Virus record (IMG/VR): IMGVR_UViG_3300025010_001927
Coordinates: 1 to 54,262 of that record
Direction: 5' to 3' (one strand)
Length of the DNA stretch: 54,262 nucleotides
Origin: a virus
Lineage: Duplodnaviria > Caudoviricetes
The position numbers and the translations under genes were made by a program. The notes beneath the pieces were generated by a model that worked only from the letters and a program-made list of their open reading frames with translations, was not told where the DNA came from and made no database searches. Below, one piece after another: positions 1 through 54,262 of the stretch; the first letter of the stretch is position 1; every line of letters starts with the position of its first letter.

Positions 1-50
1 AAGGGAACGGGATTTTAAGTCCCGCGTGGCTACCATTTCACCACCCCGGC
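1..50 (-). tRNA. tRNA-Leu(TAA), 5' part, truncated by window edge (host)
   Basis: Reverse complement GCCGGGGTGGTGAAATGGTAGCCACGCGGGACTTAAAATCCCG: D-arm and anticodon stem CGGGA/TCCCG with loop CTTAAAA. Confidence 0.9.
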
Positions 51-70
51 GTACACGTATATTTTAACTC

Positions 71-97
71 AAAAATCCCCGGCTGACCCGAGGATTT
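71..97 (-). terminator. Hairpin originally downstream of tRNA-Gly (host side of attL)
   Basis: Minus strand AAATCCTCGG-GTCAG-CCGGGGATTT followed by TT. Confidence 0.55.
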
Positions 98-98
98 A

Positions 99-111
99 AT
101 GGAGCTGGTGA
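99..111 (+). repeat. attL (core ATGGAGC)
   Basis: ATGGAGCTGGTGA vs ATGGAGCGGGTGA at 54162-54174. Confidence 0.85.
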
Positions 112-407
112 CCGTAATTGGCTCGAACCACTTTAGCCTGGGCGACTATATCACACCAGATCTTTTCTTTCAGCTCCAATCTCTTAAAGAACATATGGGC
201 ATTGATTCATTTGCCAATTATCAGTAACCCCATCCTCAGTATTTTACTTCTTTTTCCCCTGTCTACACAAGGTTGTTTCTATTACTTTCTGTTGTTGCGC
301 TGGTCTCGAGTTAGATGTATTGTATAATACCTGTAACCTACATTAAAGATTATTCTTTATTGTAGGAGTATTTTTCCTTTTTAAGGAGCCTGCCTTTTCG
401 AATAACT

Positions 408-50414: not shown

Positions 50415-50873
50415 ATGAAAAATACATCTGTAACTAAAACAACACTCCAGGGGCCAGACGACTTTACTACCGTTTGGGAGTATCTCAGCTCTGTTAGAGA
50501 AGCTAAGGGGTATACCATTCGTGTTGTTATCGACTTAATAAACCAAGCTATCTCTGAGGAAAAGCTGGAGCCTCAAGCTGCTATCTCACGCGGTTATCTC
50601 TCTAACTTAGAGTCAGGTAAATATCTTCATCCTTCTCCTTTTAAGCTCAAAGGATTGGCTGAGGCGTACAACATTCCTTACGAATTGTTGCTAAACAAGG
50701 CTGGGTATTTGGATAAAACAAGCAAAAAAATAAAAGAGGACGCTGCATTCACCTTAATGTTAAAAGAAGTCCAGGATATGACTGTTCGTGAAAGACAAAC
50801 TGTTCTGGATTACATCGAGTATGTGAAGTCCAGAAGAAATAAAAAATATGATAAAAGCCCAAAAAAGGGCTAG
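50415..50873 (+). CDS. XRE-family prophage repressor (ImmR-like)
   Basis: ISRGYLSNLESG...PSP..L..LA..Y...LL..AGY. Confidence 0.85.
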   Translation: MKNTSVTKTTLQGPDDFTTVWEYLSSVREAKGYTIRVVIDLINQAISEEKLEPQAAISRGYLSNLESGKYLHPSPFKLKGLAEAYNIPYELLLNKAGYLDKTSKKIKEDAAFTLMLKEVQDMTVRERQTVLDYIEYVKSRRNKKYDKSPKKG

Positions 50874-51300
50874 GCAGGTTTTACGAAAGTATAACCTGAC
50901 TACTGCCCCAATTAATTTACAGACAATTATTGATGGTGAGGGGTTGATCCTTGACGAGTGGTCATTTCATGGAAGAGTAAAGGAAGTCTATTTAGGAGAC
51001 AGTATCGGAATAAATAAAAATGAGGATCCCCAAAAACGGCGCGAGTTAATTGCACATGCTTTAGGACACCATTTTTTACATCAGGGGAATCATCTTTACT
51101 TTGAACGTCGGGACCAATTTACAGCCTTTAAGCAAGAGCACGAAGCTCAATGTTTTGCAGCAGAACTTCTCATGCTAAACAAGGAACTCAAAAAAGTTAA
51201 GCATCTTACGATTGCAGAGATCGCCGACTTCTTTTCTGTTCCAGAGGATTTTACTCAGTATGGAATGAGTGTTGTTTTAAAGGGGGGCTTATGCCACTAG
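50848..51300 (+). CDS. ImmA/IrrE-family protein with HALGH in place of HExxH
   Basis: RRELIAHALGHHFLH, E.EAQCFAAELLM. Confidence 0.85.
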   Translation: MIKAQKRARQVLRKYNLTTAPINLQTIIDGEGLILDEWSFHGRVKEVYLGDSIGINKNEDPQKRRELIAHALGHHFLHQGNHLYFERRDQFTAFKQEHEAQCFAAELLMLNKELKKVKHLTIAEIADFFSVPEDFTQYGMSVVLKGGLCH

Positions 51301-51926
51301 CAATGCTCATCTTTATGGACGAGTCCGGTGATACTGGATTTAAGCTGAAAACTGCCTCCAGTAGGTACTTTGTATTAACGATTGTTATTTTTGATAATCT
51401 TGAAAGCGCAGCGAAAGCCAATGATGCTATCAATGAACTGCACAAGGAACTTAAATTTCCCGAGAGCAAAGAGTTTAAATTTAGCACAGGCACATCGAAT
51501 AAGTATAAAACGGTGTTTCTTAATAAGCTGTCTAAGTTTGACTTTCGGTATCGAACGATAGTCATTGACAAAGAAAGATTGGTACAGCGTGAACCAAGTA
51601 ATCCGGAAGAGAGTTTATATATGTTGGTAACTGACCAGTTATTCCTCAGAGCTCAGAGCCGAGTTAAGAACGCTTCGCTTTTCGTTGATAGAACGGCTCA
51701 GTCAAAAGCATTCATTCAGAAGTTCAATCGGTACTTAAAGAAAAAACTAAACACGGATATGAATAAACTCATTGGTGAAATTCGACACAAGGACTCCAAA
51801 AGCAACAACCTTTTGCAGCTGGCCGATATGGTATGTGGTGCAATTTACAGAAAATACAACAAAAAGGATGACTCGTTTTATAAGATGATCAGAAAGAGAG
51901 AGGAAGATTTGTGGAAGCCCTATTAA
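51291..51926 (+). CDS. DUF3800 domain protein (RNase H-like acidic motifs)
   Basis: FMDESGD, EFKF, FVD, DSK...LQLADMV. Confidence 0.85.
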   Translation: MPLAMLIFMDESGDTGFKLKTASSRYFVLTIVIFDNLESAAKANDAINELHKELKFPESKEFKFSTGTSNKYKTVFLNKLSKFDFRYRTIVIDKERLVQREPSNPEESLYMLVTDQLFLRAQSRVKNASLFVDRTAQSKAFIQKFNRYLKKKLNTDMNKLIGEIRHKDSKSNNLLQLADMVCGAIYRKYNKKDDSFYKMIRKREEDLWKPY

Positions 51927-52341: not shown

Positions 52342-52587
52342 ATGACAGAAATTGCTGCTCAAAAACCAACAAATGACGATAACAACCTGATACTTGCAAA
52401 CTCTTTAATTACAAGGGAAGAATTGGACGAGTTTAAGGCAATTGCTTTAAAAGAGCATGGTGTTGAGCTAACTGACGAAGAAGCATTTGAACAAGCAACC
52501 GCTCTTCTGCGGCTTTTCGATGTCTTACTAGAAAAAAGACTTGCAACCAGGCGAAACAGAGTTAACATCAACACAACCCAGAAGTAA
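52342..52587 (+). CDS. Small protein upstream of integrase, candidate recombination directionality factor
   Basis: EELDEFKAI..KEHGVELTDEEA; position and lytic-type promoter. Confidence 0.55.
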   Translation: MTEIAAQKPTNDDNNLILANSLITREELDEFKAIALKEHGVELTDEEAFEQATALLRLFDVLLEKRLATRRNRVNINTTQK

Positions 52588-52616: not shown

Positions 52617-54248
52617 ATGAATACATGCTTTATATACTGTAGAAAATCTTCCGAGGATAAGGAACGGCAAATTCTCTCCCTTGATGATCAGGAACGTACC
52701 TGTAAGGAATTGGCGAAGGATAAGGGGTTTGCAGTGCTAGGTGTCTACAAAGAGAGCAAATCAGCTAAGCGCCCGGATCATCGTCCTGAATTTTCAGCCA
52801 TGGTTGAAAGAGTCTCCAAGGGTGAGGTAAAGCACATTCTCTGCTGGAAAGCGGATCGACTCTGTCGGAATGCTAAAGAAGGTGGCACCCTGATAGATCA
52901 CGTCGACTATAACGGCATGTTGATCGTCACCCCCACCATGGATTACGATCGCAATAACTCCACCTTCCTTTTTATCGAATTTGGCATGGCAACTAAATTT
53001 AGCAAAGACCTTTCCGATAATGTAAAAAGAGGAATGAATACAAAGGTTCAAAATGGTTGGCGACCAGGATCCGCTCCGTTGGGGTATATGAACGATTTCT
53101 TCAAACCCAAAGGTCAAAAGGAAGTCCTACCTGATCCTGAGCGTTTTGATCTATGTCGTAAGTGGTGGGAGATAATGATGACTGGCGAAGAAACCGTAGT
53201 CAGCTCACTAAAGAAGATTACTGCGATGGGCCTGCGCGGTAAGAGAAAAAGCGGTAAGCCTGTTAGTACCACTGAAGCATTTCGCTTTTTTCGCAATATT
53301 TTTTATACCGGCATGTTTGATTACAATGGCGAGCGACATATTGGTAAGCACAAATCGATGATCACTCTTGATGAATACCAGCGTGTACAGGATATTATTG
53401 ATGGTCGCAAACGAGTATTCAAACAACGCAATAACTTTTACTTCATGAAGCTTCTCAAATGTGGTGAGTGTGGTGCAGCTATTACTGCAGACAGAAAAAC
53501 CAAACACTACAAACGTTCTGGTACCTCTCAAATTTTTATATATGCTCGATGTACTAAGAAGTTGGGACCCTGTCACCAACAGTATCTAAATGCTGATGAG
53601 GTAGAAAAGCAGGTCAGGGAATTTATTGCTAGTTTGGAAATTAAACCAGCATTTGTGGAATGGATTAAGAAGAGCTTAAAACGAAGGAATGAAAGAGAGT
53701 TTGATTTCGAACGAGCTCAAAAAGGCAAACTCAGTAAGCGCCTAGATACAATCTTGGTTGAAAAGAAAACCCTCTATGGAATGAAAATCGATGGCATGAT
53801 TGGCGAAGAAGAGTATCAAAAGGAGAAGGCTCGGTTGCTAACTGAGGAGAAACAAACCAAAGAAGGAATCGAGGTGGATGGTGTAGCCTCATGGACAAAG
53901 ACAATGGAAGAAACATTACACTTCGCTGCCAATGTAACTAGAATCTTTAATATTGACGACATTGAAGTCAAAAGAGCTGTCCTGCGGATTCTCGGCTCGA
54001 ACCTGTTTCTAAAAGACAGATTAGTGCGAATTAACGGGAAAAAAGCGTTTGTCTTTCTAAAAACGGCTGAAAAAGCGTTCAATGAGAAAAAAGGTCGGCT
54101 CGAACCTGAAAATAGCTTGATAACTCGGGATAATACCACTCTTTCGAAAAACGATTCCGATATGGAGCGGGTGAGGGGAGTCGGACCCCTTTTATCAGGT
54201 TGGAAACCTGGAGTAATAACCGTTATACGACACCCGCATAACCACTAA
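52617..54248 (+). CDS. Large serine recombinase (integrase)
   Basis: YCRKSS, DRLCRN, recombinase domain N.FY.G, zinc ribbon CGECG, coiled coil. Confidence 0.95.
   Translation: MNTCFIYCRKSSEDKERQILSLDDQERTCKELAKDKGFAVLGVYKESKSAKRPDHRPEFSAMVERVSKGEVKHILCWKADRLCRNAKEGGTLIDHVDYNGMLIVTPTMDYDRNNSTFLFIEFGMATKFSKDLSDNVKRGMNTKVQNGWRPGSAPLGYMNDFFKPKGQKEVLPDPERFDLCRKWWEIMMTGEETVVSSLKKITAMGLRGKRKSGKPVSTTEAFRFFRNIFYTGMFDYNGERHIGKHKSMITLDEYQRVQDIIDGRKRVFKQRNNFYFMKLLKCGECGAAITADRKTKHYKRSGTSQIFIYARCTKKLGPCHQQYLNADEVEKQVREFIASLEIKPAFVEWIKKSLKRRNEREFDFERAQKGKLSKRLDTILVEKKTLYGMKIDGMIGEEEYQKEKARLLTEEKQTKEGIEVDGVASWTKTMEETLHFAANVTRIFNIDDIEVKRAVLRILGSNLFLKDRLVRINGKKAFVFLKTAEKAFNEKKGRLEPENSLITRDNTTLSKNDSDMERVRGVGPLLSGWKPGVITVIRHPHNH
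54162..54174 (+). repeat. attR (core ATGGAGC)
   Basis: Matches 99-111; equals tRNA-Gly 3' end on minus strand. Confidence 0.85.
54163..54237 (-). tRNA. tRNA-Gly(TCC) with encoded CCA, integration target
   Basis: GCGGGTG/CACCCGC acceptor stem, anticodon loop TTTCCAA, T-arm AGGGG/CCCCT. Confidence 0.93.
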
Positions 54249-54262
54249 ATTATATCAAACTT

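Follow-up and report, generated by a model that had tools for sequence, protein, structure and literature searches.

Introduction

In the archaeal viruses of the SSV1 type (fuselloviruses), the phage attachment site (attP) lies within the gene for a tyrosine integrase that targets tRNA genes, and integration splits this gene into two large parts. The targets of phage Mx8 are tRNA-Asp genes. Mx8 also has its attP within its integrase gene, such that integration converts intP to intX, giving the gene a new 3' end and its product changed properties, which the accessible portion of the source describes as an excision switch (PMC6070905). In mycobacteriophages of the BPs and Brujita types, as far as the excerpted account goes, the crossover occurs inside a phage gene and alters the C-terminus of the encoded protein, and its stability or activity, with some of the host attachment sites (attB) overlapping tRNA genes at their 3' ends (PMC8092301). 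This work describes a comparable arrangement in the complete virus record IMGVR_UViG_3300025010_001927 of IMG/VR, the whole 54,262-bp stretch of which is referred to as the window. The element is a 54-kb temperate tailed phage whose host is a tiny groundwater bacterium of the Patescibacteria (candidate phyla radiation; Microgenomates-type). The gene for its large serine integrase, int, very probably contains attP, so that insertion into a tRNA-Gly gene would exchange the C-terminal tail of the protein (Int).

Mx8 is the nearest described analogue. In both cases attP is inside int, which acquires a new 3' end upon integration; unlike Mx8, which has a tyrosine recombinase and a complex attP, the window phage has a large serine recombinase (LSR), a simple site, and an exchange affecting a short helix that is predicted to dock next to the coiled coil. 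The window system works like IntP and IntX of Mx8, but is no member of that system, as its recombination chemistry differs. The exchange of a short tail also separates it from SSV1, where the gene is divided into two large parts, and the alteration of the integrase separates it from the BPs and Brujita types, where it is the repressor that is altered and the integrases are tyrosine recombinases. A first-pass annotation of this DNA had offered SSV1 and the mycobacteriophage repressors as precedents; both stand as looser analogues, but Mx8 had been overlooked.

Among LSRs, the window family resembles the integrases LI/A118, SPbeta SprA, Bxb1 and PhiC31 in its domain order, its fold, the coiled coil in the second DNA-binding domain (DBD2), and a 5-bp shift of the DBD2 motif. 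The partial accounts available of characterised LSRs have direction set by a recombination directionality factor (RDF) at the hinge between DBD2 and the coiled coil. In the descriptions compared, the same protein serves both states, direction comes from this separate RDF, and attP is nowhere placed within int, unlike the arrangement described here. A paper on SprA reportedly refers in its title to an 'extreme C-terminal element'. To our knowledge, no mechanism has been described for serine integrases in which the recombination product reprogrammes the enzyme itself. In the Ccr-type recombinases of SCCmec, a C-terminal extension to DBD2 has been proposed to obstruct or modulate the site of RDF action (PMC12286644). 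Such extensions are permanent parts of the protein, whereas the window tail would be present or absent according to integration state. Dehalococcoides DsiB, a serine recombinase of ~540 aa specific for ssrA, inserts at the T-loop of the tRNA-like 3' end and is encoded beside its attachment site; it differs from the window Int in having a 20-bp direct repeat and in requiring a second small recombinase, DsiA, and the accessible part of that study reports no overlap of gene and attP (PMC3146451). No serine integrase with attP in its own gene was found in the literature within reach, which excluded most subscription journals and supplements (for instance the attachment-site tables of PMC10083194); the main text of PMC10083194 contains no occurrence of 'tRNA'.

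Organisation of the integrase gene

The prophage (attR) form of Int is encoded at 52617-54248 on the plus strand, and its 543 aa comprise 515 phage codons followed by 28 codons antisense to the tRNA-Gly gene. The protein has the catalytic domain, DBD1, DBD2 and predicted coiled coil of an LSR, and acts at short attachment sites with a shifted motif. Its Resolvase domain (PF00239) spans residues 5-147 (E 1.3e-22), with R9 and S11 invariant across 27 homologues; Zn_ribbon_recom (PF13408) scores 33 bits, above a cut-off of 25.3, while the Recombinase match (PF07508) is weak, at 19.6 bits under a cut-off of 21.1. A whole-chain model of the homologue P0034 matches the integrase chains of SPbeta, Bxb1, PhiC31 and LI (E 5e-21 to 4e-12), and coiled-coil helices are predicted in DBD2 at residues 344-391 and 397-419 of the window Int, and 342-389 and 395-417 of P0034.

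This family lies far from known phages, with a best identity of 27% by tblastn against 50,697 phage records. In a search of 5.8 billion proteins, 8000 candidates were scored, of which 1595 matched at E <= 1e-30. Matches in genomes were nearly all to metagenome-assembled genomes of Patescibacteria, the best being 98% identical, and their hosts include Collier-, Gottesman-, Woese-, Davies- and Shapirobacteria and Paceibacterota, among others. A scan of IMG/VR found six contigs, and an alignment-based repeat gave the same six. In one sequencing run (X8), a contig of depth 9 lacks an in-frame stretch of 78 codons (234 nt) in the 3' region of int, at 53914-54149; this may be a repeat artefact or another organism, the shorter side having 22 letters only.

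At its 3' end, int passes antisense through an entire tRNA-Gly(TCC) gene on the minus strand (54163-54237; called by ARAGORN, 52.7 bits against Rfam), which is host DNA save for its last few 3' nucleotides. The two genes are convergent and overlap by 75 nt. Codon 516 of int is the ATG at 54162-54164, from which 28 codons run to the stop. The two ends of the window share ATGGAGC(T/G)GGTGA, at 99-111 and 54162-54174, within which the attL core ATGGAGC (99-105, plus strand) is identical to the attR core (54162-54168, plus strand), the complement of tRNA nucleotides 71-76 plus one base more. Directly after a TAA at 96-98 comes an open frame of 42 codons and a stop (99-227, plus strand). The first-pass annotation had placed codon 516, the 28-codon end, the antisense passage and the 42-codon frame exactly here, and its coordinates and the peptide it quoted all hold. 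In the excised genome, int would encode 515 + 42 = 557 aa, with the first ~10 codons of the tail forming the P' half-site of attP; in the prophage, these last 42 aa would be replaced by 28 aa from the antisense strand of the tRNA gene.

Empty sites and element boundaries

To examine the boundaries, Logan contigs from four public runs were aligned with positions 53000-54262; such contigs drop rare variants. A loose end just ahead of 54162 in runs X1 and X2 has 30 letters, those of window positions 69-98, and represents an unoccupied attB. Record 11 of X2 (1211 nt, depth 37.9) contains 185 nt of left flank, the tRNA gene and 925 nt beyond. As positions up to 98 are joined to 54162 onwards in both runs, the crossover falls inside the shared ATGGAGC, and the repeat at the two ends is not a matter of chance. 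The homology of three related prophages to the left end of the window starts only at nucleotide 100 or 101. The crossover lies in GGAGC (tRNA nucleotides 71-75), most likely at the dinucleotide A103-G104, equivalent to 54166-54167; TTCGA and TCGAA are symmetric about a point between A103 and G104. The first-pass annotation would have been refuted by a junction mapping to another position, which is not what these data show.

Other junctions were also seen. Behind 54171, a second junction in the Logan contigs leads into another tRNA-Gly gene. Run X8 contains a 255-nt loose end that meets the window at 54161 and has another left flank; this is probably a tRNA-Gly site, either empty or otherwise occupied, of another strain. 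In the relative G004, the host base beside GGAGC at attL (L094) is C, and the phage side, read at attR (L016), gives T; the host tRNA gene is probably without an encoded terminal A, the phage supplying the CCA end on insertion.

Target genes and site geometry

A minus-strand tRNA gene lies at the end of the int open reading frame (ORF) in 22 of 26 genome loci, a count that excludes two partial matches (L018 and L034); contig ends truncate three of the others, and the fourth is a read-through. The same is true of 24 of 36 metagenome loci, where seven are cut by contig ends, one (L108) has a truncated tRNA with only its 3' half after the junction, one (L116) is the same contig as L026, one (L139) received no call from ARAGORN, and two (L142 and L143) are without a tRNA. 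In IMG/VR a tRNA was present at four of six loci, the other two being cut. The apparent fusion of the L026/L116 integrase into an 829-aa ORF was rejected as a read-through of antisense tRNA sequence.

These loci provide 35 distinct attR junctions, of which 15 are in Gly-TCC genes, 11 in Gly-CCC, eight in Gly-GCC and one in Thr-TGT. All are in one reading frame, with 33 continuing as TGGAGCG and two as GAGC. The shared core, 7 nt in the window, is reduced to GAGC (4 nt) over all junctions, being common to 10/10 attL and 35/35 attR sites. Integrases 97-99% identical to that of the window occupy tRNA-Gly genes of all three isoacceptors (TCC, CCC and GCC), and such near-identity argues for recent, repeated integration. 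Relatives less than 50% identical target tRNA genes for Thr, Val, Leu, Arg, Glu and Phe. The replacement tails derived from these tRNA genes vary greatly in both sequence and length.

The geometry of the sites is that expected of serine integrases. The P' half-site of attP (104-129, plus strand) carries a T-loop-like TCGAA at 123-127, 20-24 bp from the centre, and the P half-site of attP and attR (54137-54166, plus strand; int codons ~507-517) carries a TTCGA at 54143-54147 that mirrors it. In the joined attP, the two motifs stand 19 bp either side of the centre (16 nt + GGA to the left; GC + 17 nt to the right). The B' half-site is the tRNA-Gly gene itself (within 54163-54237, minus strand), where the T-loop has TCGGA at 54181-54185, 15-19 bp from the centre. 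This spacing is constant, as TCG(A/G)A starts at bp 20 in 10/10 P' arms, and T(C/T)G(A/G)A at bp 15 in 35/35 B' arms. For LI integrase, the consulted text places the zinc-ribbon motif 5 bp nearer the centre in attB than in attP (PMC3783163), as is restated for SPbeta; read from the aligned arms, the offset in the window family is this 5-bp shift of serine integrase sites. By our own mapping to tRNA numbering, the attB motif corresponds to T-loop nucleotides 54-58 and the crossover to 72/73. The zinc-ribbon domain probably reads the T-loop-like TCGAA motif, which would account for the use of all three tRNA-Gly isoacceptors by near-identical integrases. The T-loop of the window tRNA-Gly reads TCCGACT, with C at the near-universal T55 on our own reading, and related hosts have TTCGA or TTCAA.

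The decamer GGCTCGAACC occurs three times in the window, always on the plus strand, against an expectation of 0.06. One copy is in the P' arm (120-129), and two are inside int: the first at 53994-54003, encoding G460, S461 and N462, and the second at 54097-54106, in another frame (R-L495-E496-P497) within a linker predicted to be disordered. Both internal copies are fixed at synonymous positions over 49-61 distinct relatives. The Ser codon of GGCTCGAACC is TCG in 49/49 sequences, though in 12 phage ORFs only 9% of Ser residues have this codon, and neighbouring invariant Leu residues use 5-6 different codons. Synonymous-site fixation in two reading frames points to a function at the level of DNA. 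The internal copies look like DNA elements mimicking the complement of the T-loop; they might provide additional sites for the integrase to bind, or be relics of positions that attP once had. If they are accessory binding sites, this would be an LSR family with an arm-like, complex attP, of which we know no other example.

Conservation of the tail

On the first-pass annotation's proposal, the frame of the 42-codon tail ought to be conserved, and in-frame homologues do lie at the far end of nine other related prophages. A profile of the tail has one strong match (E 1e-11 to 1e-18) in each of five further integrase-bearing genomes, and matches one of five IMG/VR records, the other four of which are fragments 31-68% complete. 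The single-contig record G009 shares the layout of the window, its tail occupying 211-327 and its int ~57.3-58.9 kb, both on one strand; the coordinates of G011, G012 and G015 suggest a like arrangement with 32-69 kb between tail and int, which are assigned to one contig by its numbering only. All ten tails start at GAGC, stop at codon 37-41 and are intact beside the junction, and share the motif E[LR]VT[VI]..SN...L.LQ[LF]..LKEH..I.SF, with S8, L21, Q24, L28 and K29 invariant in 11 sequences. The tail has no Pfam or PHROGs family.

The tail is also found fused to integrases. Among longer proteins the profile has 16 matches: seven are recombinases or C-terminal fragments with the tail at their end, and nine are short ORFs in attL-like places. 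P0033, P0034 and P0123, unintegrated forms from the window's Int family, have the tail directly after the junction, which P0123 covers in one piece, reading SHME before it and RVTIRCSNLFSLDGYIKPDL after it. The same tail, reading VTVLCSNL after LLEL, is carried by P0125, P0126, P0121 and P0122, members of a second LSR lineage with 26-29% identity to P0034 (29% for P0125 and P0126). The tail with its P' arm thus acts as a module common to different integrase families. The unintegrated form also exists as DNA in L142 and L143, from a branch 44% identical.

From codon 11 to its end, the tail has a ratio of non-synonymous to synonymous substitution (dN/dS) of 0.18-0.95, which is below 1 in 13/13 pairs and below 0.7 in 12/13, figures that are weak in that they rest on ~30 codons per pair and on non-independent pairs. 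Over the 60 nt past its stop, ungapped identity is 14-22/60 in 11 of the 13 pairs, and 48 and 49 in two closely related pairs. These comparisons suggest the tail is under purifying selection.

Several tails depart from this pattern. In the ORFs P0128-P0134 (87-106 aa), ~45 inserted residues separate the SN motif from the YITP..LKEH helix, and P0128 additionally reads through antisense tRNA remnants upstream of the tail. Degraded second copies, one with a TGA stop, lie 0.6-3.4 kb beyond the intact tails of G012 (L185) and G015 (L186), and are probably the remains of earlier elements at the same tRNA. At L098 (G003:C41), the stretch of 55-64 nt just ahead of the attL junction has 81-86% identity with the 3' end of int from a different lineage, the L001/L022 type; this fossil attP-like junction suggests tandem insertions, or the exchange of tails between phages at the shared core. 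In G013 (L029/L180), a tail match lies at the start of the contig numbered C3, and int near 275 kb of L029's 283-kb contig. The tail was also considered as a duplicate of the int segment around ILGSNL, which had no support, as hhalign matched only tail columns, at 52% probability.

Predicted structure and docking of the tail

In the AF2 model of P0034 (mean pLDDT 86.9), the linker at 492-522 has a pLDDT below 50, and is followed by a tail helix at 530-550 with a pLDDT of 64-82; in the prophage form of the window Int, residues 492-543 are predicted to be disordered, with a pLDDT of 28-37 and no secondary structure, the two models not being strictly comparable, as the alignment of the prophage form was shallower (27 rows against 65). 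A model of the complex between residues 1-513 of the window Int and the 41-aa tail has an ipSAE of 0.72, where the best of three controls has 0.00; at least 57% of contacts are common to the runs, and the partner pLDDT is at least 60. The mark for docking is reached by 58/80 solved complexes and 2/110 mismatched pairs, counts that are rough with custom alignments. In the predicted interface, Int 426-458 and 475-481, the helices and strand after the coiled coil, face tail residues 12-41, among them the invariant L21, Q24, L28 and K29. On these models, we infer that the tail helix packs in cis against the DBD2 subdomain that directly follows the coiled coil. The text available on the SPbeta integrase has RDFs act in the region at the base of the coiled coil, and C-terminal extensions of LSRs have been proposed, in the excerpt consulted, to block the RDF site (PMC12286644).

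Discussion

That attP lies inside int and that integration swaps the C-terminal tail, as the first-pass annotation proposed, is borne out by four independent lines: the contigs of empty attB sites, the conserved tails at the distal ends of prophages, the proteins in which integrase and tail are fused, and the 35 attR junctions in the same frame. This structural account is very likely correct. The full explanation, in which the tail is in addition a functional helix docking on the body of Int, is given a probability of roughly 0.85.

Several results weigh against this full explanation. Firstly, the attP junction was not found, there being no branch at 54168/54169 in the contigs of the four runs, two loose ends aside; the int contigs run unbranched past 54168 in 4/4 runs (to 54171, 54171, 54190 and 54172). 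The excised form of the window phage is reconstructed from its relatives, and the empty site shows only that unoccupied hosts exist, being no proof of excision. Secondly, the B arms, made up of host DNA past the tRNA, showed no conserved motif, an unusual situation for an LSR site. Thirdly, the first ~10 codons of the tail overlap the P' half-site, and so the conservation of the SN motif may be at the level of DNA, to which is added the narrow base of the dN/dS estimates. Fourthly, the docking is a prediction made on the two halves of a split gene, a class prone to pass, and is support rather than proof; the unequal alignment depths of the two AF2 models likewise temper their comparison. Finally, the ORF directly upstream of int has no Pfam or PHROG family by which an RDF could be identified.

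The two states of the gene would separate the two reactions. An infecting phage would have to integrate with the tailed enzyme, and a prophage to excise with the tail-less one; as only the tailed form would exist in infection, and only the tail-less form in the prophage, the forms would be assigned to integration and excision by necessity, and recombination itself would toggle the enzyme between them. In the free phage, the tail helix would cover the surface at the hinge of DBD2 and the coiled coil, allowing integration only. Integration would then delete the helix from the gene, freeing that surface for an RDF, or for a trajectory of the coiled coil that is competent for excision. The RDF could perhaps be the 81-aa product of the upstream ORF (52342-52587, plus strand), homologues of which gave 76 tblastn matches in the stored loci, at 100-31% identity, and which is positioned just before int at every locus with coordinates compared. 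This ORF is a candidate partner, regulator or RDF of the integrase. A directionality or stability switch between the two isoforms, as the first-pass annotation conceived it, has indirect backing only, in the purifying selection on the tail, its predicted docking beside the base of the coiled coil and the predicted disorder of its tRNA-encoded replacement. That the tail biases direction, for instance by occupying or shaping the surface on which an RDF acts, is a tentative proposal, with the odds somewhat against it; that the tail constitutes a built-in, cis-acting directionality element is more doubtful again.

An alternative that overlaps with the docking-helix explanation is that the swap acts on how much enzyme there is, or on its stability, instead of on its direction: loss of the docking helix would destabilise the prophage form, or convergent transcription of the tRNA gene through the 3' end of int could lower its expression, and either would keep lysogens stable, as has been reported of Mx8. 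This is unlikely, though the best placed of the alternatives. The tRNA-encoded end and the linker before it are predicted to be disordered, int overlaps the convergent tRNA gene by 75 nt, and by analogy the recombinant int of Mx8 is active with altered properties, and said in the accessible text to control the rate of excision (PMC6070905). The tRNA-derived tails are so variable that any such effect would come from losing the native tail, and not from gaining a new one.

It is a good deal less probable that the swap is neutral, attP having come by drift to lie within the 3' end of int in this compact genome, with the conservation of the tail being merely that of P' DNA. Such an explanation can draw on the coincidence of the first ~10 tail codons with the P' arm, and on the TCGAAC (SN) motif being conserved at synonymous sites elsewhere in int as well. 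Yet protein conservation (Y/L-I-x-P-x-L..Q[LI]..LKEH..I.SF) extends 25-40 codons past the centre, against a half-site of ~25 bp, and persists at 60% integrase identity and in a second LSR lineage. Outside the arm, dN/dS stays below 1, while ungapped alignment mostly fails for the DNA past the stop, and the conserved tail residues are those predicted to contact the body of Int.

The idea that 99-227 is the decayed remnant of int from an older tandem element is very improbable: remnants of this kind do exist, in the degraded tails L185 and L186 and in the fossil of a different int 3' end beside the tail of L098, but the tails at 10/10 junctions are intact and start exactly at the core, full-length integrases exist that carry this tail in frame, and the empty-site contig leaves an older element no room at the locus. 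Finally, phages often carry tRNA genes, and tRNA sequence is present at both ends of the record, but the suggestion that the tRNA-Gly gene is the phage's own, with a chance 13-nt repeat and true attachment sites elsewhere, is refuted by the empty-site contigs of two runs, with their tRNA and 925 nt of non-phage flank, and by the different tRNA-Gly genes and host flanks that related integrases abut in named Patescibacteria genomes.

Serine integrases are prized tools for genome engineering, in which direction is set by a separate factor at the coiled-coil hinge. If the docking-helix explanation is true, this natural family, in which the reaction itself trades one tail that docks at the hinge for another sequence, would solve the problem of directionality in a new way. 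The family also appears to read the near-universal T-loop and acceptor end of tRNA genes, which bears on how the target choice of LSRs evolves, and such conserved landing sites are relevant to integrase design. Patescibacteria are largely uncultured, and these loci document a widespread and recently mobile group of temperate phages among them, the exact attachment sites of which could found genetic tools.

Other features of the window

The phage genes of the window include those for a large terminase, a major head protein, a tail fibre, an endolysin and DNA methyltransferases. An AbrB/MazE-like gene (408-686) adjoins attL, and the interval 50415-51926, near int, contains genes for a helix-turn-helix repressor-like protein, an IrrE/ImmA-like peptidase and a DUF3800 protein; together these look like a typical lysogeny module. 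The repressor-like gene (50415-50873) and its IrrE-like neighbour are both intact and 1.7 kb from the junction, so that attP is not within a repressor gene, as it is where immunity depends on integration.

The host DNA at the left end of the window contains a hairpin followed by a U run (73-97, minus strand; fold -14.4 kcal/mol, z -3.4), which was not called by a scan for consensus terminators. It forms the B arm of attB and attL, and in the empty site lies 3 nt downstream of the tRNA-Gly gene. Beyond it is the 5' part of a second host tRNA gene (1-50, minus strand; Rfam tRNA 21.4 bits, E 0.034), the 3' end of which is cut off by the end of the record; on our own reading of its letters, this would be a tRNA-Leu with the anticodon TAA.

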